20,000 nt of DNA, from the IMG/VR virus record IMGVR_UViG_3300044613_002265; one strand, given 5' to 3'. Made by a program: the position numbers and the translations under genes. The notes under the pieces are model-generated. The model was not told the origin of the DNA and made no database searches. It saw nothing but the letters and a program-made list of their open reading frames with translations. Shown one piece after another: positions 1-20,000 of the stretch (the first letter of the stretch is position 1; every line of letters starts with the position of its first letter). The DNA is from an uncultured virus (IMG/VR IMGVR_UViG_3300044613_002265). Taxonomy: Duplodnaviria; Heunggongvirae; Uroviricota; Caudoviricetes.

Positions 1-1
1 G

Positions 2-1768
2 TTCCATGTACGGCGGGTCGCTCTTCTTTTCGAGGGCGGCCTTTGCCGCACCGATGATTCCTCCTGCGACGGCACCAACTCCGGCACCAGCGGCGCCACC
101 TGGGACGGCTCCGATCGCCGCCCCGATCGCCGCCCCTTTTGCTGCGCTGCTGGCTACGCCTGAGCCTCCAGTGTCTGGCCTGTCCTTCTTGGCGCCTTTT
201 TTGCCGCCCCCAGACTTTCCTCTTCCTTTGCTCCCGCCGCTGCCAGCGCTGCACGAGTTGTCGATTCCTCCGTCTGGGCCGGTCGCACAGAACGCCCGCT
301 CTTCGAGGAACTTCTTCGTCTTCGCCAACTCTTCGGCGACCTTAGCCTTGGTCTGGTTGCGGGAATCAGCGTGTCCAGACTTCTGGAACTGCTGATAACT
401 CCGCTTGGCTACTGCAACAGTGGCGTCGCCATAAGCAGGGTACGTGACCGGGCCGCAGTCCAGCAGTGACTTGATCCTGGTGACAAGTCTCGTTGACCGG
501 CCGTTCTCGTAACTCCACTTCTCGCCGCCTTCTGCCACGACGAAACTGAAACTTGAGCCACGCAAGTCTCCGCGAGAAATCGACTCGGCCAAATCAGCCC
601 GCGACTCTGGCAGCAGACACTCGTACCGAAGGCCCTTCTCGTCGACGGTCATCTTCATCGTCGTCGGAAAGCGGCCCAGGAGATGGTTTGGGTCGTGGTT
701 GAACAGGCAGCGAGTCTCTAGCGGCCTCCCCTCGCCGTCCTCGCGGCTCTCGACAAGCGAGAACGCACTCGGATCAATTCTCTCGACAAAGTCCCCGAGA
801 AGCAACGAATCTTTCCCAAAGCGGGCCGCGTACCCGATAACGTAGGTCTGCGGCTTGCCAGTGTTCGGATCAGCCCGCTTCTCGACTCGAAGCAAATCGG
901 GGTCGGCCTTCTCGACGTTACTGAAGTTGCCAAGAAACCGACGCTCGACGTTGGGCAGCACAGGGGCACTCCTTTGCTCTGATGAAAAATACCGCTCGAC
1001 AGCCTCTCGCAACTCCTCCGCGACGGGCTGGCGGTCTGGGTCTTCCTCGATTCGCTTCAGGCACTCCTCCTTCGGAGTGTCGACGTGGATGTACTCGACC
1101 GGAATGTCGGACAGTTGGCCCTTCATCTCGTCGCCGATGTTTGTGGTGATGATCCACGTCTTGTCGACTGTCGGCTTCCGGAGGGCCTTTTTGATGATAA
1201 GGGCTCTGATATCCGTACAATAAGAGATCAGGTTCTTGTTTTTCTGGTGCGGCGGCAGACCTGACAGGGCGCTCATCACCTTGTCGAAGTCGAAGATCAC
1301 GTCGTTGTCGCCTTTGTGCTGCATCACGTAGGACGTCTTGCCGCTGGCTGGGGCTCCGTGGACGACAAAGACGTTGGGCTTGATGCCCTGCGTCGAGCCG
1401 AATGGCCGCAGCGACCGCCCCTCCTTCTCGTCGGCGGCGTTCATCTGCTCGACGACCTTGCGAGCGTACGCCCGCCCCGCGTCGGAGCCCCACAGAGCCC
1501 ACGCGATTCGCCCGTTGGACGGGAAGCCATCGTCTCCTGGGTTCCAGCCCTCGCCCTTCTTGTCGATCTCGTGGCGATCAAAGAAGGCCTTCATTCGACG
1601 AACGGTGGATGGCGAGAGTTGCGTGCCGTTCGACAAGTCTCGCGCACGGGCAATGCCAACGGCCGTGCCGCCGCGTCCATGCTCACGCCGCCAGGCGAGG
1701 CCCTTCTCGGCCTCTTTGCGGACGCCGTCGGGCGGGGTGAAGTCGATGTGGGAGTATTTTTCAGGCAT
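2..1768 (-). CDS. HK97-family prohead protease polyprotein, 3' end beyond window: N-terminal phage domain + P-loop kinase/AAA-like domain + prohead protease + Cys-tag + glycine-zipper-like cargo
   Basis: Absent from the ORF track because it has no stop in the window. Read manually from ATG 1768 (overlapping the end of the giant ORF): MPEKYSHIDFTPPDGVRKEAEKGLAW...RIAWALWG; Walker A GAPASGKT (1334-1357); protease motifs GYAARF, LFNHD, GSSFSF, GPVTYPAY (~400-870); then RAFCATGPDGGIDNSC (Cys pair 251-289) and GAAIGAAIGAVPGGAAGAGVGAVAGGIIG. Confidence 0.88.
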   Translation of the reverse strand, partial: MPEKYSHIDFTPPDGVRKEAEKGLAWRREHGRGGTAVGIARARDLSNGTQLSPSTVRRMKAFFDRHEIDKKGEGWNPGDDGFPSNGRIAWALWGSDAGRAYARKVVEQMNAADEKEGRSLRPFGSTQGIKPNVFVVHGAPASGKTSYVMQHKGDNDVIFDFDKVMSALSGLPPHQKNKNLISYCTDIRALIIKKALRKPTVDKTWIITTNIGDEMKGQLSDIPVEYIHVDTPKEECLKRIEEDPDRQPVAEELREAVERYFSSEQRSAPVLPNVERRFLGNFSNVEKADPDLLRVEKRADPNTGKPQTYVIGYAARFGKDSLLLGDFVERIDPSAFSLVESREDGEGRPLETRCLFNHDPNHLLGRFPTTMKMTVDEKGLRYECLLPESRADLAESISRGDLRGSSFSFVVAEGGEKWSYENGRSTRLVTRIKSLLDCGPVTYPAYGDATVAVAKRSYQQFQKSGHADSRNQTKAKVAEELAKTKKFLEERAFCATGPDGGIDNSCSAGSGGSKGRGKSGGGKKGAKKDRPDTGGSGVASSAAKGAAIGAAIGAVPGGAAGAGVGAVAGGIIGAAKAALEKKSDPPYME

Positions 1769-4700
1769 CGTTCCACTCATAGTCGTCCAGTTCCCCGTCG
1801 TCCCAAATCTCGTTCCACATTTCGTCAAGCCGCAGCATGTCCTCGGGAGACAGCCACTCGTCGCCAGACCCGAGCGGCATTTCGCGACGATCGGTGCCGA
1901 ACTTCTTGATGAAGCGGTCCATGATCTTGGACTGCGGACTCGACCTGTCCGTGAGATCGAACTTCACGTCGAGGTCTTCTCCGTTGTCTCGCCACCAGCG
2001 GGTGCCGTCGGGCGTGGCGTGCAGATCGAGAAGAGACTTGGCGTGAGACAAGTCTGGCGGCAGTTTGGCCTTGATGCTCGACGGGAGTGGCGCGTCGAAG
2101 CCCATGCGGGGCCAGATCGTGTAGCCTCGCCACGGTGTCGACGTCAGGCTCCCCTTCGTGGCCGACGAGTTACCGGCCGCATTGAGGACGATGCGAGACA
2201 CGCCCGCTTTGTGTGCTGCCTCCACCGACGAGACCATGGCTCGATAGAACTCTCGGGCGGCGGCGTGCCGCTTCGCGTCGTCCTGCTTGATCGAGTCTGA
2301 CACGTTGACAGTGCTGTGATAGACGACAGTCTCGCCAGCCGCCGTGACGCCGATCACTGACGAGCCGTGCAGGCCGCTTTCGACCCCGGCGAAGTCCCGC
2401 TCGAAGGCGAACATCACAGGCGTGACTTTCGAGCCTGGGAACTCCACGGAGAAGTCTGGGGCAGGGCGGACGAACACGTCAGACTCGTCGCTGCCACCGG
2501 CGACCATGGGGGCCAACTTCGGGTCGACGCCAGCCGCATCCAGTGATGCCTTCACTGCTTTCGGCGATGAGATGTCGATCGAGCCGTACCGGCCGTCGCC
2601 AATCGGCGGCGGCGACGAGTCTCGGGAGGACGCGGGCCATGTTGCCGACTCGTTGCTCGACCACGTTCCGCTGGACGATGGAGGCGAGGCCGTGGCGGGT
2701 CCGCCGCTGCTGCCCTCGGCCGCGCAGTCGTTGCCGCTGCCGAATCGCCCGCCCTCGTCGCGGCCGCAGTCGGCCGACCGCTGCTCGGTCGCTGGCCGCA
2801 TCAGCCACGGCCGCACCTTGAGGTGCTGGTATCCGAGCGGCTCGTCGCCCTCGTCTTCGGCGTCGACGGCTCGGCGGGCCTTCCGGTTCCGCTTCGCCAA
2901 CTCTGCCTTGATGATCTCGGGGCCAATCTTCGAGGCGTAGGCGTTTTGGGCGGCGTAGTTGCCGGTCTTCTCGTACACGGCGTTCTGGCCGAACGTCTCA
3001 GCGAACAGGGCAGGCCACGCGCCTTCGGGAAGCGTCGAGGCATGGGTCAGCATGCCGTTGTACTCGCCGTTGGTTGAGAACGAGTAGCCGCCGCGAACGT
3101 GCGCGACCATGTCATGGACGACACGGAACAGGTCGTTGGCGATCATGGGCTCGCCATCGGCAGTCTTGTACTTCGTCTCGCGAAGCATCGGGTGGTCGGG
3201 CGTGGCCGAGCCAGTGCCGAATCCTCGCTCGGTCATAAAGAACGAGAACTCGCCGGTCTTGGCGACCTCTTCTCGCATCTTGTCCGAGTTTGGCTTCGTG
3301 CTGCCCGGCGGGTCGCCGTACGGTTCGCCTTCGCCTCTCCAGGCCCTGACCTTGAGCCCTGCCGCCACGAGGGCCTCGTACTGCCTGCCGATCTCGTCGA
3401 CGAGGTCGGCGTAGGACTTCTCGGCCTCTGGAGTCAGCGACGACCCAGAAGACGTCTGCTCGTCGGCGGCCGACGTGAGAATCTTTTCAGGCGGCGTGTC
3501 CGCGCGACCCTTTGCCCTGTCCCAGACAGACTTCGGATCGGGCGAGACGGAGTCGATGGCGTCGCGGAACTTATCGGAGCCGCGAGGGAAGGACTTGGGC
3601 AGCGACTCCTGCGTGCGGCCAGGCGAGCCTGCCGCAGGCGAGCCGTCGTCAGAGCCGCACGAGTTGTCGACCCCGCCGCCGTCGCCAGTGGGGCAGAAGG
3701 CCCTCTTCTGCTTGCGCTTCGACAGGTCAATGAAGTAGGCTTGGCTTCCGGCGTCTTGTGTCCCAACATGATCATCGCTCAGAAGGTGCGAGACATCGGA
3801 CTTCTTGATTCGTATGATCGCCGCTGGTGGCGGGTCGTCAGACGAGTGAAACAGATGTTCCTCGATCTTGCTCTTCCACGCCGCAAGCCCGCTCTTTTCT
3901 GTGAAGAACACCTTGCCTTTTGAGTAGTTCTCGTAGGCGCCGCCCTTGACTGTTGCCTTGGAGCCAAGCGGCCTTGAGAACCCGTCGGAAAGGATTTTCT
4001 TTGCGTTCTCTTCTGTCGTCACATGATAGATGTAGCCGTCGTCTTGATCTACGAACGACGGCTCTCCTCTGAACAGTTCCGCTGACTGCGCCTTGAGTTT
4101 TCCGTCGGTGGCGCTGCACGAGTTGTCGAGCCCGCCGCCGTCGCCCGTGGGGCAGAAGGCGCGAGACTCCTTGGCTCGCTTGGTCAGGAACTCGACCGCG
4201 AGGTCGGCGAACTCATCGTCGTCCATGCTCGCGATGAAGTCCGCGAACAGAGCCTGCTCGGGGCCGCCCTTCTGGTCGGAATACAGAGGCAGGCTCATCG
4301 GCTCGGCGATGACTCCGAGAGAACGCTTGCTCTCTCGCCGCCGCTTCTGGTAGTTCGCTGGCTCGGTGACGATCTTGCGGATCACTTCCGAGTAGAGCGA
4401 GGGCTCGCCTGGGACCGTGGTCGTGCGAGACCCAAGCGTGCCCCACGCATCCTGCTCGTCCTGCCACAGGATGTCCTGCATGTAGGCGACCGAGACTCCG
4501 GTTCTCTTGGCGGCTTCACGCATCGCGCGGATCATGTTCGCCCGCATGACAGACGTCGTAGGCGCCCGCATGACGTTGGCTTGGTTTTTCAGGATGGCAA
4601 CAGCCAAGCGATCCAGTTTGTATCGCTCGGCTGTGCCGGTTCCGTTTTTGGGATTCGGGAACTTGTCCTTCTTGTACTGCTTGTCTCTCGCCTCGGCCCA

Positions 4701-7700
4701 GTCTGCGATCTGCTGCGGAATGACGCCAGTCCTCTTCATCTGCGCGACGAGCGTCCGGAACTGCCTACCGTCCAAGCCCATCGCAGCGAGTTCTTTGCGG
4801 GGGATGTCCTTGGTCGACGCCATCAAGTCCGAGGCATGCTTCTTCGCGAGAGACTCCGAAGACTTGGACACCAACTCGCCTGAGAGCCTGCCCCACGTTC
4901 GCGTGAACCAGATGTCAGCGGTGAGGGCCTCATCGTCGCCGGTGTTGTTGGCGAAGAACGGGCCAACTTTAGGACCGAAGATGCTGAACGGCGGGACAAC
5001 TTCGGCGACGGCGTAGTCGTTCGCCTTGTAGCGATCGCCTTCGGTGCCAGGAACCTTCGAGAGGAAGAACTTCTCGAAGTCGCTGACCTTGATCGGCGGC
5101 CCGGTGAATATCCGGCGAGCCTCCTCAAGGCCGACGCGGTCGATGATCTTCTGGAGTCTCGCGAAGTCAGCGAGCGTGTTCTCGGCTCCGGCTCCGGCAA
5201 TGCGAATGCCGCTGCCGAGTTTCGCCTTGCTCGGGTCTGGCTCCTCGAAGAACGCCGTCAGCACGGCGTCCGCCCGGAGCATGTTCTCGTACGGGTTGGC
5301 TTCCGGTGAAGTCAAAGCCTGAGCGGCACGGAACAGAAACTCTGCCTGCGGCGAGATGCCTTCAGACGGCTCGCACTCTCCGTTGGGGCCCTCGACGCCG
5401 ACGCAGAATCCTGACGCTGTCCTGCCGCCTCGCATGAGCGGCTGAATCTTGGCGTACTCTTCGATCTGTGTCCGGCGGTCCTCTGGGCTGTAGAAGTTGG
5501 GCGAGACTCCGCGAGCCCGCGCGGACTCGACCTGGGACACGATGCCAGACACCATGTACTCGAAGTCATCTCCTTCGAGCGGCTTCGTAGTGTCGATGGT
5601 GCGGCCACGATGCTCGGCCTGCCTGGCGACGAGGTAGTTGCCGACCGAGATCGGGTCGATCTCGTCCTTGCCTGCAAGTCCACGCACTGGCGTGGCGCCT
5701 GGGACGGACGTGGAAAGAATCTTCTTGCCGTCGTCGCTCCGCTTGGTTGGGCTCTTCTCGACAGACTCCTTGAAGACGTCGACGTGGCTCGCGCCAGGCG
5801 TCCACTTGAGCGGCTCCTTGGCTGGCTCCTCAGACTTCTTCGCAGCGCGGGGTTTCTTCTCTTTTTCCTTCGACGGCGATCCGTCGCCCTTCGCGCAGTC
5901 ATTGCCCTTGGCGAACTGGCCGCTCTCGGTCTGCTCGCAGTCGTCGCGACGCTCGACGCCATCGTCGAACGCACTGCGAGTCTTGTTGCGTTCCTTCAGC
6001 CGGGCAAGCATCTTCTTCATTCGCTCGAAACGCTTGTAGCCAGCATTGGTCTGGTCGGTGAAGTCGAGCGTCAGTTCAATCGTCGTGCCGTTCTCGTTCC
6101 ACCAGCGATCGCCTTCGGGCGTGGCGATCAAGTCCTGAACGGTCATCTGGCCTGTGAGTGCCCTACGCTTCTGGTACGGCGTGAGTTTGATGTCCTCCTT
6201 GATGGCGTCGATGTCGGCCCTATCGAGTTCGCCATCGAAACCAAACTGCGGCCACAGCCGATATCCTTGCAGGGCACTGGTCGACGTTCCGGCGGCGATC
6301 GTGTCGGCCCGGATTGCTCCAGACTCCTCGGCGACAGAGAGCGACTCCGTCATTCGCTCCAACACGAGACTGACGATTCGACGCCTGTCGGCCGAGTCAT
6401 CTTCCAAGTCTCCGCTGATGGATGACATGGCGGCAGAATCCAGCGACATGCTGTCGTAGTTGACGACGAGATACCCGTCGTCGTCCTTCATCAGCGACAC
6501 CATGTTCTTGATGTTGCCAAGACGACCAGAGCCGTCCGGCGCAACTGGAATCGCGGAGTTGACGATAATGGAGTCGCCGAAGGCGTCGATTCCGACTGAT
6601 CCGCCCTGACGAACGCCGCCGCTGATTGCGACAACGTCCTTGACGCCTTTGACTCTCCCGAAGTCAGAGAGCGTGTCCTTCAGAGACTGGACATCGTTCA
6701 CGGAGAACGAATCGAGGACTTCGGCGCCCTTGAACGGCGGCGACGACGAAATGGCTTCCGCGTCCATGTCGACGCTCTCTTCGTCCTCCCACGACGAGCC
6801 ATCGCTGGCGCAGTCGTTGCCGCTTCCAAACCGGCCTCCATCGACCCGACCGCAGTCAGCCCCGGCCCTGAACTCAGCCTCTTCTTCGAGCCACTCGAAG
6901 AACGCCCGCGACTGATTTCGCTCCTTGAGCCTCTTGAGCCGCGACGTTTGTTTCTGGAACTTGGCGTAGCCGAGGCTCTTCTTGTCCGACAGGTCGAGAG
7001 TCATGCTCAGAGTTGTGCCGTTCTCGTTCCACCAGACGTCGCCTTCGTGGAATGAGACGAGGTGCTGCACGGTGATGTCGCTGTGAGGCAGGGCCGCGAC
7101 AAGGGCAGCGTGCGATGGCGTGATCCGCGTCGCAAAAAGATCGGGCCTCGCAGTCCGCATCAACTTCTCGACCACTGCCTGCGGGGCCTGGGAGAGCGAA
7201 TGCTTGCTGCTCTTGTCGAGCATGGCATCGAATCCAAACTGCGGCCACAGGCGATATCCCTTGAGTTCATACTCGGGGCCGCCAGCGGCACTCATCTTGA
7301 CCTTCGAGATTCCTGTCTTTTCGACGCTGGCGATCGCCTCGATAACAGCCTGCTGCATAAGGCTAGTGGCTTTTGCGACCCTCTCGCGAGTGGCAGTCGC
7401 AGCCTTGTCTGGGTACATGCCGTTGAAGCCAAGCACATACTCTCCGTCGTCCCGATACACAGCGACGTTGACGTCAAATTGGCCTTCCGAATCACTGCCA
7501 TCGCGGGCAAGCGGGATTTCGTTATCAATGGTGATGAAGGCGCCGGTGCCGTCGTTGCCGCCTGACGCTCCAAAGAACGTCACCTTACTCCCGCGAATTG
7601 TCGCGCCGCTCATGGCAGCGAGTTCGTCGAGCGACTTGATGCCAGCGTCAGACATTCCATCCGCAAGTCCCTGCGGGTTTGGAATAGCGACGCTTCCTGC

Positions 7701-8909
7701 TTTGTCTGCACCTGTGAATGGCGGCTTGTCTTTGAGCCCATCGCCAGAGATAGATAGAGACGACTTCGACTCCTTCCACGAGTCGTCCGCCTTGGCGGGA
7801 GCCGCAGAAGACTGGCCGCCTGGGCTGCACGTATTGTCGATGCCGCCGCCTTCGCCTGTTGGGCAGTAGGCACGCAACTCAGCCCAGTCGCCATCAAGCA
7901 GGGCTCTAGCCTCGGCGTCAAAGAAGGCGTCAGTCAAGTCCAGGCCTCGCTTCGAGAACCTGTCACGCAGGGACTTGAATCGCTTCCAGCCAGGATCGCT
8001 GTTGCTGCCGACGGCGAGCGACATCTCCATCTCGCCGCCGTTCTCTTCCCACCACTCCTGGCCCTCCTTGGTCTCGTACAGAGACTGGATCGTCAAGGCT
8101 CCTGCGGCCTTCTCTTTGCGAGCGCGAGGCGAGAGAATCTTGTCTGGGATGCCGCTGCCGTAGGAGTTGAAGAACCCAGTTGCGAGCGACCATGTGGGCG
8201 TGACATGCCTGCGTGGAATCACGCCGTTGAAGCCGAGCCTCGGCCAGATGCGATAGCCCTTGAAGTCAGAGTTCTTGCCGCTATCACCGGCGGCCAGCAT
8301 CTCGACCCTGTCGACGCCGATCTTCTCAGCCTGCGTAATGCTTGCGATCGCGCCCTTCATCATGTGACGAGCGACGGCGACGCTGGCTTTCTGCTTGGCC
8401 TCGTCGCTGATCATCAGCATCGTGTAGGACATGACGAGTCCGTCTTCTTCGGTCCTCGTCAGCGATGCGGCAGTCCGAGCAGCGCCCTCGATGCCAGCCA
8501 CGGGCATCTCGCTCGTGAACGTCACGGTGTCTTCGATGTACCGCTCCGGGTCATCGCTTCCCATGAACTCGATGATCTCAAGCAGCCCGCCGTGGGATAT
8601 CGTGACCTGGGCCTCCGGGTCGAGGGCCGCGCATGCTCTGGCCGCTTGATCAAGCGTGACGCCGACCTCGCGGAGCGACTTGTTGACCAGTTCGCCGTCC
8701 ATGATGACGACTGCCTTCACGCCAGCGAGCGACTTGGCCGGAGGAGACTGCTTCAGGTCATCACCGGCAATGCGAACTGGTCCCTGCTCCCGCTTCCACG
8801 AGTTGTCGGTCCTTGCTCCGCTGCCGTCCTGCGACGAGCAGTCGTTCTTGACGCCGCCGCCGTCGCCGGTGGGGCAGAATGCCCGGTACTCTTCTTCCAG
8901 AAAAATCAC
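1761..8909 (-). CDS. Giant (~2382 aa) multidomain polyvalent-type protein between portal and protease: 4 paralogous GNAT-like domains, a glycosylase-like domain, an ADP-ribosyltransferase-like domain and a metallopeptidase-like domain, each introduced by a Cys-tag
   Basis: Uninterrupted 2406-codon ORF. The likely start is GTG 8909, which overlaps the portal stop (GTGA). Seven C-x11-C or C-x13-C tags divide it into modules, and GY(R/T)(I/L)WP(R/Q)xGF...WWx(E/D)NG occurs four times. Confidence 0.85.
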   Translation of the reverse strand: MIFLEEEYRAFCPTGDGGGVKNDCSSQDGSGARTDNSWKREQGPVRIAGDDLKQSPPAKSLAGVKAVVIMDGELVNKSLREVGVTLDQAARACAALDPEAQVTISHGGLLEIIEFMGSDDPERYIEDTVTFTSEMPVAGIEGAARTAASLTRTEEDGLVMSYTMLMISDEAKQKASVAVARHMMKGAIASITQAEKIGVDRVEMLAAGDSGKNSDFKGYRIWPRLGFNGVIPRRHVTPTWSLATGFFNSYGSGIPDKILSPRARKEKAAGALTIQSLYETKEGQEWWEENGGEMEMSLAVGSNSDPGWKRFKSLRDRFSKRGLDLTDAFFDAEARALLDGDWAELRAYCPTGEGGGIDNTCSPGGQSSAAPAKADDSWKESKSSLSISGDGLKDKPPFTGADKAGSVAIPNPQGLADGMSDAGIKSLDELAAMSGATIRGSKVTFFGASGGNDGTGAFITIDNEIPLARDGSDSEGQFDVNVAVYRDDGEYVLGFNGMYPDKAATATRERVAKATSLMQQAVIEAIASVEKTGISKVKMSAAGGPEYELKGYRLWPQFGFDAMLDKSSKHSLSQAPQAVVEKLMRTARPDLFATRITPSHAALVAALPHSDITVQHLVSFHEGDVWWNENGTTLSMTLDLSDKKSLGYAKFQKQTSRLKRLKERNQSRAFFEWLEEEAEFRAGADCGRVDGGRFGSGNDCASDGSSWEDEESVDMDAEAISSSPPFKGAEVLDSFSVNDVQSLKDTLSDFGRVKGVKDVVAISGGVRQGGSVGIDAFGDSIIVNSAIPVAPDGSGRLGNIKNMVSLMKDDDGYLVVNYDSMSLDSAAMSSISGDLEDDSADRRRIVSLVLERMTESLSVAEESGAIRADTIAAGTSTSALQGYRLWPQFGFDGELDRADIDAIKEDIKLTPYQKRRALTGQMTVQDLIATPEGDRWWNENGTTIELTLDFTDQTNAGYKRFERMKKMLARLKERNKTRSAFDDGVERRDDCEQTESGQFAKGNDCAKGDGSPSKEKEKKPRAAKKSEEPAKEPLKWTPGASHVDVFKESVEKSPTKRSDDGKKILSTSVPGATPVRGLAGKDEIDPISVGNYLVARQAEHRGRTIDTTKPLEGDDFEYMVSGIVSQVESARARGVSPNFYSPEDRRTQIEEYAKIQPLMRGGRTASGFCVGVEGPNGECEPSEGISPQAEFLFRAAQALTSPEANPYENMLRADAVLTAFFEEPDPSKAKLGSGIRIAGAGAENTLADFARLQKIIDRVGLEEARRIFTGPPIKVSDFEKFFLSKVPGTEGDRYKANDYAVAEVVPPFSIFGPKVGPFFANNTGDDEALTADIWFTRTWGRLSGELVSKSSESLAKKHASDLMASTKDIPRKELAAMGLDGRQFRTLVAQMKRTGVIPQQIADWAEARDKQYKKDKFPNPKNGTGTAERYKLDRLAVAILKNQANVMRAPTTSVMRANMIRAMREAAKRTGVSVAYMQDILWQDEQDAWGTLGSRTTTVPGEPSLYSEVIRKIVTEPANYQKRRRESKRSLGVIAEPMSLPLYSDQKGGPEQALFADFIASMDDDEFADLAVEFLTKRAKESRAFCPTGDGGGLDNSCSATDGKLKAQSAELFRGEPSFVDQDDGYIYHVTTEENAKKILSDGFSRPLGSKATVKGGAYENYSKGKVFFTEKSGLAAWKSKIEEHLFHSSDDPPPAAIIRIKKSDVSHLLSDDHVGTQDAGSQAYFIDLSKRKQKRAFCPTGDGGGVDNSCGSDDGSPAAGSPGRTQESLPKSFPRGSDKFRDAIDSVSPDPKSVWDRAKGRADTPPEKILTSAADEQTSSGSSLTPEAEKSYADLVDEIGRQYEALVAAGLKVRAWRGEGEPYGDPPGSTKPNSDKMREEVAKTGEFSFFMTERGFGTGSATPDHPMLRETKYKTADGEPMIANDLFRVVHDMVAHVRGGYSFSTNGEYNGMLTHASTLPEGAWPALFAETFGQNAVYEKTGNYAAQNAYASKIGPEIIKAELAKRNRKARRAVDAEDEGDEPLGYQHLKVRPWLMRPATEQRSADCGRDEGGRFGSGNDCAAEGSSGGPATASPPSSSGTWSSNESATWPASSRDSSPPPIGDGRYGSIDISSPKAVKASLDAAGVDPKLAPMVAGGSDESDVFVRPAPDFSVEFPGSKVTPVMFAFERDFAGVESGLHGSSVIGVTAAGETVVYHSTVNVSDSIKQDDAKRHAAAREFYRAMVSSVEAAHKAGVSRIVLNAAGNSSATKGSLTSTPWRGYTIWPRMGFDAPLPSSIKAKLPPDLSHAKSLLDLHATPDGTRWWRDNGEDLDVKFDLTDRSSPQSKIMDRFIKKFGTDRREMPLGSGDEWLSPEDMLRLDEMWNEIWDDGELDDYEWNDA

Positions 8910-11900
8910 GTCGAAAACTTTCCGTTCGTTACCGAAGAGAGAAGCCGCATCACGTCGTCGCCGTACTCTTTCCCGGCCCACAGGCCAGCCAGGACTTCAG
9001 CAACGAACTCGCGGTGGCTCGTGGCGGCGTAGCGAGAAACGCTCTTGGCGACGTCGCGGTTCTCGGCGTCAAACGAGAGCGACGCCGATGCGTCGTACGA
9101 CTCGGCGTCTGCCACGGCATGATGCCGATGAGCCAGTTCGTGCAGGAGCGGATTGGGCTGCGAGAGCCAGCCCCTCGCTGCTGCGAGCCGGAACGAGGCA
9201 ACGGCCTCGTCATTCAGAGAGTCGGACACGTAGATCGCGTCCGTGTCGAGGTCGTACTCAACTACCGAGCGAGACTCGGTAGTTGGCCTGAATACGATGC
9301 TCGGGAGATCAGCCTCGCCAGACTGCTTCAGTTCTTCGACGAGGGCGTCTGCTGCTTGGCGGCCTTCTCGGCCATGATCTTCTCGCGAGCCGCCTCTATG
9401 GCCGCCGCGATCTCTTCCGCCTTCGCTCCCGTCGGAAAGTCGAACCGCACGAGTTTCGCCTTTGCCTTTGGTTCGTCTGCCACTGTAGTCGCCCTTTCTG
9501 ATTTCTTTCTTCTCGTTCAAGTCCCAGATCGCGAGTTGATTGGTCGACTCAGCCGCATCAATGGCGTCGTCGATGTCATCAAATCGCTCCGACAGGTCAA
9601 GGTACACTTGGTTGGATTCGGAATCAATCCAGCCGCCGATGTGAAGTGTAGGCCTCTCCTCGAACTTAGACTTGTTTTCTTTCAAGAACTTGTCGATCAC
9701 CGGCCCTGTGACTTTTTGGGCTGATGGAACAATGGTCTCTGACTCTGGCGCAACCGAGACCATGTAACCAGACGTCGGACTTGACTCTGACACTGGATGA
9801 ATTGAGAACCCTCCAGTCTCGGCCATAGACTTGATCGCCATTTCTGCGATCCGGTCAGACTTGGAGCCGCCTTCGCCGTCGGCTGCGCAATTGTTTCCAG
9901 GCCCAAACAGTCCGCCGTCGACTCTCCCGCAGTCTTCCGCCCGCTGCTCCAGCCCCCACGAGTTGTCATCCAGAGACCTGTACTGCTCGCTGGCGTACCG
10001 CTCGCCGTACTTCGGCGTTCGCACGAAGACCGTGTTGCCAATGCTGACAGAGTCGGTGCCGCCGGTGACTTCACGCCCGGTCCTCTTGTCGTAGAAGTAC
10101 GCGGCTTTCTTCGGGTTGTAGCCGACCGCCGTCCAGTCGTTGATGTCCTCTGGAACCTCGCGGCTCGGCTTGAACTTGCCGACGACCGTCGCAAGCGGAG
10201 TCTTTGAGCGGCCCATTGCGATCGCTGTGGCCGTCGGCTCGTGCGAGACGAACGTCACGTCTCCAGACAATGTCACGATCGAGTCGAATCCAATGACCTT
10301 GCCGACGCCGTTCTTGGACTTCGCCTTGCTGTGGACCGTGACGGCGTACGTGTCCTTTTTCTCGTAGGCTGGAATGTCGATTCGCAGGGCGACGGGAGTT
10401 CCTTCAGCAAGTTCGCGGTGCGATCCGACGAGTTCTCGCTTGGGAATCTCCTGGCCGTCGATCTTTACGTTTCCAGACAATGCAAGGCGAATCGCGTCGT
10501 CGCTTGCCATCGGGATGCTGTCAGAGTTCTTGGACGACTCTGCGACGGGCTTGAAGTCCACCTTGGCGGCGAGCCGCTCGTCGTTTGCGGCGATCGGGCC
10601 CTTGATGGCATTGGCCTCCCTGGAGAGGCGATTGTCCCTGGCCTTGGCGGTCTCCGTCGTGCTGCCGCACGAGTTGTCGATCCCGCCGCCTTCGCCCGTG
10701 GGGCAGTACGCCCGCTGCTGCTTGCCCTTCTTGGCGATCCGTCCGCCAGTCTTGAGGACGGCGTCGTCGCGATGAACAGAGACTGGATACCGTTTGCCGC
10801 GATTGTAGAGACGATCGCTAATCTTGTCGGGGAACGCGGGCTTCGCGAGCGACTCGATCTGTGACGCCTGCTCTCGCGAGAGCGTCTTGCCGATGGGGAC
10901 AATGCCCGCGCCGTTGTAGCCCATCTCCACGTAGAAGATGTCCTTGCCAGATGAGTCGCGGACTCTGATGCCGATCTTGTCGCCGGTGACTTTGGCTGAC
11001 GATCGCCCAGGCTTGCCGCCGAGTTGTCGCACCAAGTCCTTGATGCGTCGCTCAGACGTGCCCATCTGGTAGAGTTTCTTGGCAGCGCGAGACTGCTTCT
11101 TATCGCCCTCGCCGCGACGGAAACCGCGAACGGGCTCGCCGTCGTCGCTGCTGCCAGCGCACTTGTTGCCGTCCTTGAAGCCGCCAGCGCCCGTCCCGCA
11201 GTCGCGAGACTCTGGCATGCTGAGTTTTTCTTCGGGAATGATCCACAGTTTGCAGATCGCGTTGGGCGAGATGATGCCCTTGACGATCTCGCAGGAGCCG
11301 CCCTCTTCGTAGTAGATGCAGTTCCGGCAGGCGATGCCGCGAGACGCGAAAGGGTTCTTCTCCATGTAGTGGGCGCCGCTTGGGCCTTGCTGGGGCCAGC
11401 GTCCACTCTTCTTGACGATCTCTTCCTGGGCGTCGTACAGGGCCTGATTCTGCTGCGAGAGGGCCCGCTTCTCTTGGATCGGCTTGAGTTGCGAGACCTT
11501 GATGCCCGCTTCCTCGCCGGTCTCTTCGTCGACGACAAGGGCCACGGGCTCGCCTGGCTGGACTTCGATCTTCTCGCCAGACTTGAGGTCGAGCGTGCCC
11601 TGCTCCATGACGTGCTTGACGCGGCCGGTCTTGCCTTCGCCGTAAGAAACAAGCATGCCTTCTTCTTTCGGCTTCGACTGCTCACCCTTCTCGGCCGGGT
11701 TCGGAGCCTTGCCCGTCTTGACTTCAGGCAGGCTCGGGACGCCGCCTTGGGCTGGCGGCGGCGGGGCTCCTGGGCCGCCCATCATTGCCGGGTCGGGCTT
11801 CGGCTTGACTGCCTCGTCGATCGTCTGCATGTTCATGCCGACGAAGTGCTTGTCGCCGTTTTCGAGCGGCGGAAGGTTCTCAAGTCGACGGCAGTCGTTG

Positions 11901-13036
11901 ATCGAAAAAATCCCGAGGTTCGTCATCGTGGAGTAGTAGCCCGCGCGAGAGTTGGAGTCCCCTCGCATCAGTCCACGCACGTCGAACTCGGCGACGAACA
12001 GGTCGTCGTTGTAGATCAGCGACCGAGAGATCGCGCTCTCGATGCGTCGCAGCCATGGCACCAGCGTGTAGGTGACGAAGTCCTGGCCCTCGATCTCCGG
12101 GTTGCCGCCAGGCTGGCCCTGCACGAGCCGGAGGGGCAACCGATAGACCCTCGCGATCTCCTCGGACTGGAAGCGGCGTGTCGACTCGAACTGCGACTGC
12201 TCGGCCGTGAAGCCGACGGGCTCGACTTTGAGTCCGTTCGTGAGGATCGCGGTCTTGTACGCCCGGTCGACGCCGCGATGGAGTCGCTCCCAATTATCTC
12301 GCAGCCGCTCGGCGGCCTCGGGCGAGAGCGAGCCGTCGGTCTGTAGCACCATGCCGGGCCGGGCTGAGTTCGCCCAGAACTTGGCGGCGTGAATCTCGCA
12401 CGCCCTGGCGAGGGCGATCGACTCGCGTGCGACTTCGACTGGGACCATGCCCTTGATGCCGTCGGGCTCGGCGGTCCACCGGACGTGCATGATCTGGTCT
12501 TGCGTGTACGGCTCTAGTCTTCCGTTCTCCGGATTCGTGTACATGTAGCGGAGGCGGCCGTTTTCGAGCCGCTCCACGTCCATGCGAGACGGGTGGAGGT
12601 TGAGCAACTCCGAGACAGCGCCGTACCGGCCGCTCTTGATCTGCGTGTAGGAGTTCCCCCACAGGCAGAGGTTCATCACCATCTGCTCGAAGAACTCGAA
12701 CTTGGTCTGCCAGGAGTTGGGAGCGAACGACAAGACTCGATACAGCGGAATATCGCGGGCGATGTCTTTGCTGCCGTCTTCCCCTCGCCGGTAGACGTGT
12801 AGGGGAAGGGAACTGATCGTCTCGGCCAAGATGCGGCAGCACGCCAGCACCACGGTCGACTGGAGGGCTGTCTCAGGCGTGACGCGAACTTCGGCCTCAG
12901 TCCGCCACCGGCCGCCGTAGGTCTCTTCAGACAGCAGGAAATTGTTCCACGAGATGCCACGAATCTCGGGCTCGGACAGCCCGCGTGCGGGTGTCCAGAC
13001 AATGTCGGACAAGGCTCTGTTTTCGGAGTCGCTCAC
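8906..13036 (-). CDS. HK97-family portal protein with a ~950-aa C-terminal multidomain extension
   Basis: The first ~410 aa carry HK97-portal hallmarks (ALQSTVVLACCRILAETISSLPLHVY, APNSWQTKFEF, LWGNSY, EIARVYRLP, TLVPWLRRIESAI, SINDCRRLENLPPLENGD), and the gene follows terL. GTG 13036 has an upstream AAGGGGG RBS. The extension has a Pro-rich linker, a 4-Cys domain, three Cys-tags and a C-terminal HELAH. Confidence 0.92.
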   Translation of the reverse strand: MSDSENRALSDIVWTPARGLSEPEIRGISWNNFLLSEETYGGRWRTEAEVRVTPETALQSTVVLACCRILAETISSLPLHVYRRGEDGSKDIARDIPLYRVLSFAPNSWQTKFEFFEQMVMNLCLWGNSYTQIKSGRYGAVSELLNLHPSRMDVERLENGRLRYMYTNPENGRLEPYTQDQIMHVRWTAEPDGIKGMVPVEVARESIALARACEIHAAKFWANSARPGMVLQTDGSLSPEAAERLRDNWERLHRGVDRAYKTAILTNGLKVEPVGFTAEQSQFESTRRFQSEEIARVYRLPLRLVQGQPGGNPEIEGQDFVTYTLVPWLRRIESAISRSLIYNDDLFVAEFDVRGLMRGDSNSRAGYYSTMTNLGIFSINDCRRLENLPPLENGDKHFVGMNMQTIDEAVKPKPDPAMMGGPGAPPPPAQGGVPSLPEVKTGKAPNPAEKGEQSKPKEEGMLVSYGEGKTGRVKHVMEQGTLDLKSGEKIEVQPGEPVALVVDEETGEEAGIKVSQLKPIQEKRALSQQNQALYDAQEEIVKKSGRWPQQGPSGAHYMEKNPFASRGIACRNCIYYEEGGSCEIVKGIISPNAICKLWIIPEEKLSMPESRDCGTGAGGFKDGNKCAGSSDDGEPVRGFRRGEGDKKQSRAAKKLYQMGTSERRIKDLVRQLGGKPGRSSAKVTGDKIGIRVRDSSGKDIFYVEMGYNGAGIVPIGKTLSREQASQIESLAKPAFPDKISDRLYNRGKRYPVSVHRDDAVLKTGGRIAKKGKQQRAYCPTGEGGGIDNSCGSTTETAKARDNRLSREANAIKGPIAANDERLAAKVDFKPVAESSKNSDSIPMASDDAIRLALSGNVKIDGQEIPKRELVGSHRELAEGTPVALRIDIPAYEKKDTYAVTVHSKAKSKNGVGKVIGFDSIVTLSGDVTFVSHEPTATAIAMGRSKTPLATVVGKFKPSREVPEDINDWTAVGYNPKKAAYFYDKRTGREVTGGTDSVSIGNTVFVRTPKYGERYASEQYRSLDDNSWGLEQRAEDCGRVDGGLFGPGNNCAADGEGGSKSDRIAEMAIKSMAETGGFSIHPVSESSPTSGYMVSVAPESETIVPSAQKVTGPVIDKFLKENKSKFEERPTLHIGGWIDSESNQVYLDLSERFDDIDDAIDAAESTNQLAIWDLNEKKEIRKGDYSGRRTKGKGETRAVRLSDGSEGGRDRGGHRGGSREDHGREGRQAADALVEELKQSGEADLPSIVFRPTTESRSVVEYDLDTDAIYVSDSLNDEAVASFRLAAARGWLSQPNPLLHELAHRHHAVADAESYDASASLSFDAENRDVAKSVSRYAATSHREFVAEVLAGLWAGKEYGDDVMRLLSSVTNGKFST

Positions 13037-13085
13037 TGTGCCCCCTTGCACTCATTGATCGTCATCGACCCGCGATGGAACAAGT

Positions 13086-14753
13086 TCACAGCAAGATGAT
13101 CTCCGGATCGGCCATCTTCGGAGCAGCCTCGGCATCGCTGGCAAGTGCGAGAGCCATGACGAGCGCGATCATGCCGTCCACTCGGGCTGGACTCATGGCC
13201 GCTGGCTTGGCGATCTTGATGTAGCCATCGGCGTTGGTCTTTATCGTGCAATTTCCGGCCATCCAGTTCAGGATCGGATTGTCATTCGTCCGCAGGCGTC
13301 CCTGCGAGATCAGCCCGTCGAGCGCGCGGGTCGGCGCGTTCATGGCCGAAAAGTTCTGGGAGAAGCCTATCACGTCCAATCCTTCGGCCTGAAGTTGTTG
13401 GACGAGGTAATGCGAGTTGTATGGGTCGGTGGCGATCCGCCTGACCGTCCGCTCCTTGGCGAACTTCAGGATGTCCCGCTTGATGAACTCGTAGTCGCAT
13501 GTGTCGCCGGGAGTCAGCGTCAGGCCGGTCTTCGGGTCTTTAGCCCACTGGATGTACGGCACCTCTTCGCGGCGAGTGTCGGCGTTGTCGGCTGGAATCC
13601 AGAACTTGCAGATCACGTCGAACACGTCGTCGTGGGCCTTCGAGACCGCCACGAAAGCGTTGACGTCCCAGGTCTGAGCAAGATCGAGCCCGCCATACCA
13701 GACCCGCGACGAATCGAGCAGGCCGGAGTGGCCCTTGCACTGCTCCCACTGAGTCAGATTCACGAACTTCTCGGTGCCCGCCACCCAGACGTTGAGCCGA
13801 TAACGCAAGAATGACGAGAGCCGGGAGGGCGACTGCTCGGCCTCGCGGACGTCCGCCTTGAAACTCTCCTCGTCCATGGTCACGCCGAACGACGGATTCG
13901 CAGCCCGCCAGACTTCCGGGTCTCGGTAGTCATCTTCAGCGGTGGCCGCCGCGATGTAGGCGAAGTACTGGGGGTCGAGACTTGGGTCTTGCATGACCTT
14001 GAGGGCATGCTCGTGCTGCTCGTAGCAGATCGACGATCGGTCGTAGCCAGCCGTGGTAATCGCCAGGACGAGGCTTTGGCTACGGGAAATGCCGCCGTAG
14101 CGGATCGCGTCCCAGAGTTTTCTGTCCTTGGCTGAGTGCAACTCGTCGTAGCAGAGCGAGTGGATGTTGAGGCCTTCCGCTCGGTGGCTGTCGCTGGAAA
14201 TGACCCGCCAGAACGAGTTCGTCGGAACGCAGGCGATCGTTTTGCGGGAGTCGACGATCTCCAGCCGCTTGGACAGGTAGGGGCTGGAGCGGACAAGTTC
14301 CGCCATCTGCTTGTAGACAATGCCTGCTTGGTCGCGGGACGTGGCCGCGCCGAAGCACTCAGCGGCTGGCTCGGAGTCAGCCACAGTCATATAGAGCGAG
14401 ATGCCCGAGAGAAGAGTCGATTTGCCGTGTGACGACCTTGGCCCCCGTGGCTACCACGCCACAGGGGCCAAGGCGCCATTTTTTTTGGGCACCTCGATGT
14501 AGCCGACCCGGAACCTACGCTGGTCGTTGTCGACCCGCATCCAGCCGAAGAGTTCCTCGATCACCTCGTCTTTCTGCCAGGGCAGGAGGGTGAACGGCTT
14601 TCCGGCGAACTGACCCTTGGAGTGGATCAGAAAGTTCTCGAAGAAGCCGACGGCGTGAGCCGCCTTGGCCTCGTCGAAGTAGTAGTCGTAGCCGAGACTA
14701 AGCGCCTCGGCTTTTGATATACGCTTCCAGCGGGTCTTCTTGGGCAGCGGCAT
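13086..14753 (-). CDS. terL: Terminase large subunit (Terminase_1 family), interrupted by an in-frame TAG inside a 51-nt insertion in Walker A
   Basis: ORFs 14451-14753 and 13086-14390 share a frame. Motifs: HSKGQFAGKPFTLLPWQ, YIEVPKKNG...KSTLLSG (Walker A), CYDELH (Walker B), ITTAG, GGLDLA, DPYN, RVDGMIALVMA. Removing 14424-14474 gives an intact ~538-aa TerL. Confidence 0.93.
14424..14477 (-). other. Hairpin insertion in terL, candidate translational bypass (ribosome hop) element
   Basis: mRNA reads AAT GGC [GCCTTGGCCCCTGTGGC GTGGTA GCCACGGGGGCCAAGG TCGTCACAC GGC] AAA TCG. The 16-bp stem (14436-14451/14458-14473) has one G-U pair, the in-frame TAG is at 14451-14453, and matching GGC codons lie at 14475-14477 and 14424-14426. 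Confidence 0.65.
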
Positions 14754-15162
14754 TCGATACCTTCATGGTCGACCGGGCGGCGGCAGTCATGCCGAACTGT
14801 TGCTCGATCCGCATCAGTTCCCCCGGCAGGCTTTTGAACAACGATCCCTCCGCTGTCAGTTGGCTGTACCCCGTCTGAGTCAACTGGGTCATGCCGTGTT
14901 CTTGAACGTGCTTCACGACGTGGAGCCACTGCTCGTGCATGAGGCAGTACCGCTCGATGACGCTCCGGTCGGCCTGGGTGAACACGCCCATGCCAGACAG
15001 GAGCGGAACGATCTCGTTCCACATGTCGAGGGCGGCGCCGCCAAGACGAGCCGGAGGATTCGTGTCCGCCGGAGGCGGCTTCGGCTCGTCGGCGTTGATC
15101 GGTCGCTGGCCCGGATTTCCCCGGATGACCTTCAGATTGGTGGGAGTTGGGGGACGTCCCAT
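14698..15162 (-). CDS. terS: Terminase small subunit, P27 family
   Basis: MGRPPTPTNLKVIRGNPGQRPIN...PPARL...W...IERYC...QFGMTAAARS is the typical P27 TerS pattern, and the gene lies directly upstream of terL. Confidence 0.92.
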   Translation of the reverse strand: MGRPPTPTNLKVIRGNPGQRPINADEPKPPPADTNPPARLGGAALDMWNEIVPLLSGMGVFTQADRSVIERYCLMHEQWLHVVKHVQEHGMTQLTQTGYSQLTAEGSLFKSLPGELMRIEQQFGMTAAARSTMKVSNAAAQEDPLEAYIKSRGA

Positions 15163-18134: not shown

Positions 18135-18253
18135 CTCAAACGTCCAGTACTTCGCCGGGGATCATCGCCCGCACTTCCTCGCACAGTTTGCGGACTTCCG
18201 GAGTCGTACTCGCCTTGCTCTTCAGGCAGCGTAAACGTGAGCGTGGCCTTCAC
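18131..18253 (-). pseudogene. Small gene, apparently internally deleted or frameshifted
   Basis: GTG 18253 (GTGA overlap) gives MKATLTFTLPEEQGEYD, then the frame looks non-protein-like. Another frame continues TPEVRKLCEEVRAMIPGEVLDV*. Confidence 0.45.
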
Positions 18254-18537
18254 TCTGCCTCCGGCTTTCTGTGCTGGCACGGGCAGTCAGGGTGGTGGCA
18301 GAACGCCGCCGGGACTGTCGCCGAAGCCGCCGCCATGACCCACCAGTGATCGTCATGCTTGACGGTCGTGAGCAGCCAAGTCCCAGGCGGCTGGCTTGGC
18401 CCCGCCGCCTTTCCTGCCACATGTCCCCGTGCCGTCTGGATTGCTGGCAGCAGCAGGGCAATGAGCGTGGCGATGATCGCCAGCACTACAAGGGCCTCCA
18501 CGAGTGTGTAGGCCTTGTGTTTTGATTTCCTACGCAT
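18250..18537 (-). CDS. Prepilin-type N-terminal cleavage/methylation domain mini-protein
   Basis: MRRKSKHKA|YTLVEALVVLAIIATLIALLLPAIQTAR has a basic leader, Glu at +5, a hydrophobic helix and an LLLPAxQxAR ending like Planctomycetota DUF1559 proteins. The C-terminus is short and ends CHHPDCPC. Confidence 0.8.
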   Translation of the reverse strand: MRRKSKHKAYTLVEALVVLAIIATLIALLLPAIQTARGHVAGKAAGPSQPPGTWLLTTVKHDDHWWVMAAASATVPAAFCHHPDCPCQHRKPEAE

Positions 18538-19087
18538 GATGGTCACAGGCCACTGGGTTTCTGTTACGCATGAACTCTGCCACTTCTTCCACGCTCACCG
18601 GCCGAAACCCGTGACAGTCGACGCCAACGTCCAGAGACTTGCCTCCGATGTCCGACAGGTTTCCGTGGCTGTGCCCGTGCAGAAGCCACGACCCTCTGTG
18701 CATCTGGTTCCAGACTCGCATGGCGTAGTGGAACATGACGATCCGCTGCTTATGGGCGCCGCCGAGGTCGACCTTGATCTCATGGTAGTCTTTGACCATC
18801 GCCCATCGCGGATTCTTTTTGACCTCGTCCCTGTCATGGTTGCCGCAGATCAGCCACTTCTGCCCGTTCAGGCGAGCCAGGATGGCGTCGATGGTTTCGT
18901 GGTGCTTCTTGCCCCACGATAAGGCGAAGTCGCCAAGATGGAAGACCATGTCTCCAGGCAAGACTCGCTCGTTCCAGCGAGCCACCATCGTCTCGGTCAT
19001 CTCGTCCAGGCTGGCGAATGGCCGCCGCGAGTGTTCGATGATGTTCGCGTGGTTGAAGTGCGTGTCGGAAGTGAACCAGAAAGTCAT
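18530..19087 (-). CDS. Calcineurin-like metallophosphoesterase
   Basis: SDTHFNH, HLGDF, GNHD, HGHSH and DVGVD motifs. Confidence 0.93.
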   Translation of the reverse strand: MTFWFTSDTHFNHANIIEHSRRPFASLDEMTETMVARWNERVLPGDMVFHLGDFALSWGKKHHETIDAILARLNGQKWLICGNHDRDEVKKNPRWAMVKDYHEIKVDLGGAHKQRIVMFHYAMRVWNQMHRGSWLLHGHSHGNLSDIGGKSLDVGVDCHGFRPVSVEEVAEFMRNRNPVACDHHA

Positions 19088-19491
19088 GTCGGCGACCCCG
19101 GCAGCGGCAACCAGTGGGTGACGCTATCGGTTGGCTGAATGCCGGTAACAGGCAACACCAACGCCCACCAGTCATCCATCATCGGGCTGTATGTGCCAAC
19201 AGTTACCTTCCCTCCACAGACAACGCATACAGGTTCGTTTTTTTCCGGCAGTCGCTCGCTCACGGGAATCCACACTCCAACTGTCTGCCCGTTGATGACA
19301 CGCTCTGCCACACTTTCGGCAGCCCGTTGCCCAGTGCCTTCAAGCATCATGCCTGTTAGCGTGCTGGCAGCAATCACTTCGTCGCGGCAGTCCATAAGCA
19401 ATCGTCGCACTTTTTCATGCTCCATGTATTCCGGGTTGAAAAGTCCGCCGTTGGCTAAGTAGTTCGTGATGCGACTGATAATGTCGTCCAT
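19084..19491 (-). CDS. DUF551-like protein
   Basis: C-terminal WIPVSERLPE...VTHWLPLP signature; ATG 19491 has an AAGGAG RBS. Confidence 0.8.
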   Translation of the reverse strand: MDDIISRITNYLANGGLFNPEYMEHEKVRRLLMDCRDEVIAASTLTGMMLEGTGQRAAESVAERVINGQTVGVWIPVSERLPEKNEPVCVVCGGKVTVGTYSPMMDDWWALVLPVTGIQPTDSVTHWLPLPGSPT

Positions 19492-19509: not shown

Positions 19510-19560
19510 CACAGAACCACGCGATGCAGCGGACGAGCCGCTGATCGCTGGTGTTCTCAC
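19510..19560 (+). mobile_element. attC-like recombination site 1 (short)
   Basis: CACAGAAC-CACGCGATGCAGCGG-ACGAG-CCGCTGATCGCTGGT-GTTCTCAC has AAC/GTT cores, an imperfect stem and an extrahelical G in the ATGCAG arm. Confidence 0.6.
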
Positions 19561-19562
19561 GC

Positions 19563-19904
19563 TTACGGCTCGTCTCGCCAGTCGCACAGGTCACATAGTG
19601 GCAGTCGCACGCCGTACCCCTTCTCTGCCGTCAGGTCTTCCGTGACGCCAACGTCCCCAAACCTAGACACCATGACGAGTTTGACCGTGCTACCGGCAGG
19701 AATGGGAATCTCTACTTCCTTGCTGTCTCGCAGGTGCAGCATCAAAGCGTCGCGTTTCAGTGTCGCGTATCGGTACGGCCACGTTTCCGGTCTGTGCGGC
19801 ATCCAGCCGCGAGACATGGCATGGTCTTCGGCGGCGCGGTCGAAGTGAGAACCAGCGGATGCAAGAGACGGCTCGGCCGCGTCCTGCGTGTTGTCGGTGT
19901 TCAT
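19563..19904 (-). CDS. Hypothetical protein carried in an attC-bounded cassette
   Basis: 113-aa ORF whose AGGAG RBS and first ~19 codons lie inside attC-like site 2; core IPAGSTVKLVMVSRFGDVGVTEDL...GYG.R. Confidence 0.75.
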   Translation of the reverse strand: MNTDNTQDAAEPSLASAGSHFDRAAEDHAMSRGWMPHRPETWPYRYATLKRDALMLHLRDSKEVEIPIPAGSTVKLVMVSRFGDVGVTEDLTAEKGYGVRLPLCDLCDWRDEP

Positions 19905-19936
19905 GTCTCGCCGCTCCTGATCCTGCGTGTTCTGTG
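19845..19936 (+). mobile_element. attC-like recombination site 2
   Basis: GTGAGAAC-CAGCGGATGCAAGAGACGGC...GCCGCTCCTGATCCTGCGT-GTTCTGTG has the same architecture as site 1. Confidence 0.6.
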
Positions 19937-19937
19937 A

Positions 19938-20000
19938 CTACTCTGCCTTCCAACCGTTGTTGATGTACGCCAGCACGGCGTGGAATGCCGCCACCTCGCC
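19938..20000 (-). CDS. 3' end of a hypothetical protein starting beyond the window
   Basis: ...GEVAAFHAVLAYINNGWKAE* stops immediately before attC-like site 2. Confidence 0.45.
   Translation of the reverse strand, partial: GEVAAFHAVLAYINNGWKAE

Follow-up and report, generated by a model that had tools for sequence, protein, structure and literature searches.

The window, the whole stretch of 20,000 nucleotides analysed here, is part of a tailed phage: its minus strand carries terminase genes (13086-15162), an HNH gene and a number of small accessory genes, and the sequence was found in lake and freshwater metagenomes. Near its end, two hairpins (sites 1 and 2) with the appearance of attC recombination sites flank a small minus-strand gene, hereafter the cargo gene (Table 1). 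The stand-in record for the whole genome (G001; 19 kb, 20% complete) is 100% identical to the window over 5001 bases and reaches 2.5 kb past the window end. It carries nine attC sites in one orientation at positions 1-3012 (~3 kb), and sites 1 and 2 are thus the tail of a longer array. Having at least two attC sites in the same orientation and no intI, these nine sites constitute a CALIN; no tyrosine recombinase was found in G001. The cassette whose gene ends in GWKAE occurs twice in G001, with 15 differences in 360 nt, and the two copies are then followed by different sites, diverging from AAC on; a second duplicate, at the start of the G001 contig, is identical over 126 nt and is possibly an assembly effect.

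Table 1 Features at the end of the window
Feature	Position	Strand	Remarks
Metallophosphoesterase-like gene, without sites	18530-19087	-	Cassette elsewhere
DUF551 gene	19084-19491	-	PF04448; own ribosome-binding site
attC site 1, short type	19510-19560	+ (top)	Geometry scan and host-trained model
Cassette: antisense cargo gene and attC site 2	19554-19929	+	376 bp; cut between G and TT at both ends
Cargo gene, 113 aa	19563-19904	-	Head encoded by attC, predicted disordered (about residues 1-21); beta-rich core
attC site 2, long type, 82 nt	19845-19936	+	Host-trained model and translation
AGGAG ribosome-binding site, in the 5' arm of site 2	19914-19918	-	9 nt before the ATG at 19904
3' end of upstream cassette gene (...GWKAE stop)	19930-20000	-	Array goes on past the window

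On the other side of site 1, the DUF551 gene overlaps the start of the metallophosphoesterase gene. A homologue of the former is a full cassette in L080, and the DUF551 gene of the window would be a former first cassette, its far core end and the adjoining attI being gone. The metallophosphoesterase protein is 87% identical in L120, and in L120 and L125 its gene has attC sites on both sides, with matching cores. L125 is a genome-bin contig of 3269 bases with an eight-site antisense array, partly near-identical to that of phage L120, and is probably a phage contig inside a bacterial bin. Next in the window comes a small minus-strand gene (18250-18537) with a prepilin-type N-methylation motif (PF07963) and homologues in L005, L035 and L057; together with the host matches described below, it suggests a host among the Planctomycetota, of Pirellulales type. 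Farther away, the minus-strand ORF 1761-8981 (2406 aa) repeats the motifs 'RAFCPTGxGGGxDNxCS' and 'DCGRxxGGRFGxGNxCA', both of which recur in the 1381-aa ORF 8906-13051 and in ORF 2-1828, which we take to be portal-like and prohead-protease-like, respectively. Phages L229, L241 and G005 (L005/L056) have terminases 96-99% identical to that of the window and wholly different arrays (2 to 14 sites). A promoter and terminator scan stayed at chance level.

attC sites have one spacer of 5 nt and another of 4-8 nt. On the plus strand, both sites read AAC, 5 nt, an 8-nt L'' with one extra G, a 7-nt L', 6 nt and GTT. They thereby have the R''/R' boxes, AAC...GTT ends, 5-nt spacer, 8/7-nt L boxes and extrahelical base of attC, whose overall structure is as set out in the attC sections of PMC5027507. 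Site 1 spans 41 nt from AAC to GTT, has its extrahelical C on the minus (bottom) strand, contains no start codon, stands at the head of the DUF551 cassette and is identical at 39 of 41 nt to a site in a Pirellulales genome. The bottom strand of site 2 encodes the ribosome-binding site (RBS), the ATG and the first 20 codons of the cargo gene. All site counts given here come from a purpose-written geometry scanner, not from IntegronFinder. In 1,026,014 bases (125 partly overlapping sequences, their loci picked by attC-like motifs) it returned 377 sites, against 5 in Markov shuffles of the same length, and sites 1 and 2 are its only matches within the window. A covariance model trained solely on 59 host attC sites (62 non-redundant long sites less three possibly belonging to phage-type cassettes) scores site 1 at 46.0 bits and site 2 at 44.9 bits on the minus strand; site 1 on the plus strand reaches 9.5 bits and the next-best match in the window 10.4 bits. 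The check that a preliminary description of this DNA had proposed, an attC covariance model, thus comes out in favour of both sites. The host alignment shows covariation at 16 of 21 pairs, a partly circular result, because the sites were selected by pairing. Rfam gave no match, nor did the INPHARED phages.

Two features depart from the textbook site. The extrahelical base, expected to be a G on the bottom strand, is a C here (with G on the top strand), an arrangement found in 360 of the 377 phage sites and 203 of the 210 host sites; its presence in IntI-linked host sites marks it as a lineage trait. The bottom strand has little advantage in folding (mean -0.57 kcal/mol over 316 phage sites, +0.34 over 19 host sites), and the two strands of sites 1 and 2 fold equally. 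The cores had also been a worry, as deviating from RYYYAAC/GTTRRRY. That worry falls away: GTTC cores recur in host sites next to true IntI genes, so pyrimidine-rich cores are no argument against attC. Judged by their sequence, both hairpins are real attC sites.

The four octamers at the ends of the sites, CACAGAAC at 19510, GTTCTCAC at 19553, GTGAGAAC at 19845 and GTTCTGTG at 19929, all lie where the preliminary description had placed them, and its boundaries for a 376-bp cassette are borne out. Behind GTTCTCAC the cargo gene is found with other neighbours in L001, L002, L003 and L006, and it ends in GTGAGAAC, again with other neighbours, in L001, L002, L003 and L076. The description had further noted a reciprocal 8/8 match, inner core with inner and outer with outer, and had taken the swap as the footprint of insertion into a pre-existing attC. 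Its two halves fare differently. The inner cores, GTTCTCAC and GTGAGAAC, are mutually complementary, and so, at 4 nt, are the inward-facing cores of 175 of 219 cassettes, counted as the non-identical units that adjacent sites delimit in phage loci (mean of shuffles 37.9, maximum 56). Outward-facing cores match at 4 nt in 39 of 219, which is the chance level (shuffle mean 37.9). A first cassette set had given 123 of 146 for the inner and 27 of 146 for the outer match. The commonest cores among the 219 are CTCA (60) and CTGT (55), and 24 cassettes have the complete reciprocal pattern. The inner match is the normal cassette rule and the outer match is chance; with the two sites ending a longer array, the footprint reading does not hold, and insertion at an attI is the simpler route, since the same gene stands first at an attI-like site in L002. 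No exact empty-site relative of the 376-bp cassette was found, and the joints listed (15 of 47) from contigs of four runs contained no clean excision joint; these contigs agree with the window throughout the cassette, site 1 and the DUF551 side and break at the repeats. Units with complementary cores do move intact, as integron cassettes should, by the 175 of 219, by the reordered cassettes and by the host arrays described below. The swapped cores are silent on which site travels with the gene, for which a comparison between phages was needed.

The order standard in integron cassettes, a gene on the top strand and then its attC, is not that of these arrays. Among 128 clean phage cassettes (the phage-like bin contig L125 included), a bottom-strand ORF reaches the far core in 111 and a top-strand ORF in 20, the test being an open frame that ends at the far core; a longest-ORF test (75 bottom, 71 top) is uninformative in GC-rich DNA. 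The 111 antisense cassettes have 71 long and 40 short sites. An RBS with an in-frame ATG lies inside 52 of the 71 long sites and none of the 40 short ones, 29 of which have RBS and ATG just past the site. In 49 of the 52, the frame crosses the core in one and the same register, as Gly-Ser or Gly-Tyr, and 64 of the 76 RBS-ATG pairs in long sites are in the frame of the cargo. The cargo gene fits this pattern: its first 20 codons, MNTDNTQDAAEPSLASAGSH, lie inside site 2. An antisense cargo with RBS and N terminus inside attC, as originally described, is thus what the 113-aa minus-strand ORF, the AGGAG and the 20 codons give, and the proposal that attC doubles as a translation start extends, as a predicted function, to most long sites. 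Host cassettes, by a heuristic count that leaves out three of four phage-type cassettes through filtering, are sense in 66 of 114, unclear in 46 and antisense in 2; among top-strand host ORFs, 12 of 40 match toxin-antitoxin families, the 40 having been hand-picked from 136. Host arrays with IntI and attI have the same site polarity as the phage arrays, with genes on the top strand. Array polarity is uniform, and no phage locus has sites on both strands. Many cassette proteins of L012, L037, L039, L056 and L145 have a 'LTDEEREAI...LRxLLERL' tail in common, with the far core formed by its final codons; modularity may thus extend to both ends of the protein.

The cargo protein has no match in Pfam, NCBIfam or PHROG and 10 homologues. 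AlphaFold gives pLDDT below 50 at residues 9-21 and 82-94 in the core. The best hits of a fold search (Z 5.4) are SH3-type domains; no fold search gave a clear match, and the atlas matches have no common family. The models hint at a disordered head on a weakly SH3-like barrel core. Three different attC heads occur on cargo homologues, all joined at GS-HF, and the downstream short site is common to L001, L003 and the window, with different heads. In L004 (MTDRD-HF) and L007 the gene has no sites and begins with a native start; in G005 (L005/L056) it lies outside the main array, its head decayed.

Movement of cassettes is seen between phages L037 and L039, in which three cassettes without a mismatch stand in different order, with breaks between AA and C of AAC. 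Each unit runs from the C of AAC through the front site and the gene to the AA of the far core, so that the front site travels with its gene; at the junctions the two sides have fewer than 10 nt in common. Bottom-strand recombination crosses over in AAC, according to the recombination sections of PMC5027507, and the breaks appear to be that crossover point. Where the upstream neighbour differs, the front site is retained in three of three cassettes of 100% identity, against two of seven homologous cassettes of 80-97% identity. From this and the three cargo heads it follows that sites are also replaced on older copies, a replacement that simple bottom-strand excision leaves unexplained.

Many related phage arrays end in an attI-like site. 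Among 74 terminal sites, three of them bacterial, 53 have a matching end core. Beyond that core the sequence is mostly no longer attC: a heptamer resembling an L box, a 5-nt spacer and GTT occur, together with TTA-type repeats near -24, -29 and -44; the account of attI1 in PMC8946536 describes a like layout. A separate scan for the terminal motif found 36 loci with 32 distinct sites. Where at least 400 nt lie upstream, an attC is present on that upstream side within 1.2 kb in 21 of 25, in 20 with a matching core; none of the 32 sites has an attC on the opposite side. In G051 a full IntI is faced by an attI to which the end of phage array L115 is identical at 34 of 40 positions, shuffles reaching at most 22. 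A position matrix built from phage ends, which recovers 34 of 39 at 10 bits or more in leave-one-out, picks out 14 host sites scoring at least 12 bits, two of them apparently spurious; five of the 14 adjoin an integrase gene, one divergently and four on its strand and downstream of it. A profile of array ends built for nhmmer was too insensitive, missing the window and the host attI sites. The host attI downstream of intI and on the same strand (L252, L264, L309 and L321) is of the type commonest in phages; the divergent host integrons L128 and L151 have a hairpin-like attI type also seen in phages L115, L116 and L119. Host attI sites with an array and no intI nearby lie beside housekeeping genes in L213 (11363-11433) and L126 (5032-5102), and hosts therefore also seem to run integrase-less arrays in trans. 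No attI-like site was found in the window or in G001 (best plus-strand score in the window -0.7 bits), from which the window phage is judged to have lost its own attI.

Four phage cassettes lie in host arrays, as represented in metagenome-assembled genomes, two of them directly at attI. In G156 a phage cassette is first at the attI on a 233-kb contig (C6), beside nadA, with 98.5% identity over 330 nt, and on contig C23 two phage cassettes (97.9% and 93.9%) stand ahead of eight host cassettes; in G050 one is first at attI, at 96.5% over 316 nt. At the junctions with attI, phage and host copies have only the core in common, which argues against a repeat-driven chimera. In the other direction, phage L015 holds a host-type sense cassette, 75% identical over 239 nt to L290. 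Since the cassettes are reshuffled between phages and present in host chromosomes, the phages probably use the host's gene-swapping enzyme.

We thus regard it as probable that these are integrase-less phage integrons, on whose bottom-strand attC sites the host IntI would act in trans, with insertion at a phage attI. The phage array would consist of an attI site and attC cassettes, with no integrase gene, and sites 1 and 2 are its last attC sites. Site polarity is normal and the genes are on the bottom strand, from which phage transcription would read them toward attI, so that each attC comes to stand in front of its gene. Long sites, having acquired translation starts, would supply an RBS, an ATG and a disordered head of 15-25 residues ending in Gly-Ser, and short sites would stand before genes with their own RBS, making every cassette a self-starting unit. 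In the window phage, the loss of attI would mean that cassettes can still be lost or donated and cannot be loaded at attI. The structure and polarity of attC, the boundaries, the reordering, the antisense layout, the start pattern, the attI-like ends, the shared cassettes and the IntI-free phage records enter this account as sequence comparisons; to them we add, by inference, catalysis by host IntI, translation of the heads and the identity of the host.

Which enzyme moves the cassettes bears on the main alternatives. The preliminary description had proposed shuffling by an integron-type integrase of host or phage. The sequences support such shuffling, and the integrase is probably that of the host rather than of the phage: IntI above the TIGR02249 cut-off is found in 76 of 176 genomes of the host family and in none of 49 phage records (including G001, 20% complete), none of which has the intI next to the array that marks a complete integron. 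Attesting the host side, a looser short-site attC pattern occurs in 49 of 176 host-family genomes, a strict pattern in 3 of 301 of the order. It is quite improbable that the phage's own tyrosine recombinase of about 285 aa, rather than host IntI, does the work, even though Pfam places an Xer-like enzyme in 36 of 48 array-bearing records, and Pfam together with a custom profile places one in 24 of the 25 that are near-complete, and though all 3 near-complete records among terminase relatives (21 of 45 loci used) have array and recombinase together. These enzymes, common in these phages (L129-L143, L152, L153, L368-L438), lack the IntI insertion, the distance from Lys to HxxR being 58-63 aa in 9 of 11 phage recombinases measured, against 106-108 in two host IntI. 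Their genes lie far from the arrays, beside a conserved divergent gene and a short upstream ORF, with no tRNA next to any of 25 such loci. Conversely, attC sites occur in only 7 of 37 records picked by recombinase, and in 1 of 7 near-complete ones (from 71 loci of one recombinase clade, the 37 of at least 22 kb and not already picked by array), and the attI of host IntI genes is what the phage ends look like. The Xer-like recombinase looks like a general feature of these phages.

Relic host integron sites, between whose attC repeats cassettes are exchanged by homologous or single-strand-annealing recombination, are an improbable source of the same picture. The sites are indeed near-identical repeats, head swapping looks as though the crossover fell inside a site or on its far side, and the window phage has lost attI and its neighbouring former cassettes are fused. 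However, the breaks fall exactly at AAC, a whole site with a variable 6-nt spacer goes with the next gene, junctions at attI have only the core in common, and a uniform polarity (no locus with both strands) ends in an attI-like site. Highly improbable is a mirror-image unit, in which the plus strand is recombined, the gene moves with its downstream site (the 19511 side) and the start comes from the upstream site. The symmetry of the swapped cores, a G as the extra base on the plus strand, the equal folding of the strands and the short downstream site that L001, L003 and the window have in common under different heads would suit it, but the sites of host arrays with IntI and attI point the same way and the genes there are on the top strand, the covariance model favours the minus strand by about 36 bits, and identical cassettes travel with their front site. 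Such events may, rarely, cause the head swapping.

Beyond host IntI acting in trans on phage arrays, one can imagine a parasitic mirror image of the integron, a tentative reading that we are more inclined to doubt than to hold. The phage would have copied the host attI, kept its cassettes antisense as a two-way firewall and made genes into cassettes. Host toxin-antitoxin or defence cassettes would then be silent in a phage array and phage cassettes silent at a host attI, and an attC start would be fused onto ordinary phage genes, with heads swapped later; a native MTDRD-HF (L004) beside the attC-encoded ...GS-HF of the window cargo is such a pair. If true, phages would be a place where new integron cassettes arise, and the phage attI type would name the host.

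Genes that occur both packaged as a cassette and unpackaged form natural pairs, which give a handle on how integron cassettes arise. On this layout, the ...SAGS and ...SRGS that recur at the N termini of lake-phage proteins would come from recombination-site DNA, and antisense phage genes are to be expected among the 'gene-less' or odd cassettes of environmental integrons; att sites might serve as host markers where the phage is uncultured. Bacterial tools in the usual view, integrons have lately been treated as anti-phage arsenals, in the account of bioRxiv 10.1101/2024.07.02.601686; our data suggest that phages, too, draw on the integron enzyme for their accessory genes.

Phages were already known to carry CALINs from the text of Qi et al. 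2023 (PMC9892861), which reports 17 CALINs in 10,705 genomes, terms the TJE1 and PH101 arrays typical in structure, finds phage attC sites recombined by IntI1 and proposes exchange with bacterial integrons; that CALINs are served in trans is accepted (main text of PMC9668308). The arrays described here are alike in being attC arrays in phages without intI. However, the text of Qi et al., its figures aside, has no antisense rule and no start codons inside attC, and no attI in virulent-phage arrays or cassettes shared by phage and host. The traffic in both directions that it could only propose now has sequence evidence. In the literature searched, with subscription journals mostly outside it, we found no antisense phage arrays, attC-encoded starts, phage attI or shared phage-host cassettes. 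With sedentary chromosomal integrons, as treated in the relevant sections of PMC5027507 and PMC8946536, the phage arrays have in common the attC geometry, the bottom-strand AAC crossover, uniform site families, and attI L and R boxes with upstream repeats. By contrast, they have no intI in cis, their genes face attI and are not read from Pc, and their attC precedes the gene and can start it. Insertion of cassettes facing the promoter was never seen, according to the text of Nivina et al. 2016 (PMC5027507); unlike in that case, the orientation of the phage sites is normal and only the gene is reversed. A gene opposite to Pc is described for Xanthomonas sRNA-Xcc1/symE (text of bioRxiv 10.1101/2025.06.18.660453), and recombination-site DNA aids translation in cassettes that borrow attI1 signals (text of PMC8876359). 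As presented in those texts, both are exceptions in sense arrays, with the signal in attI, whereas in the phage cassettes reversal is the rule and the signal lies in their own attC.
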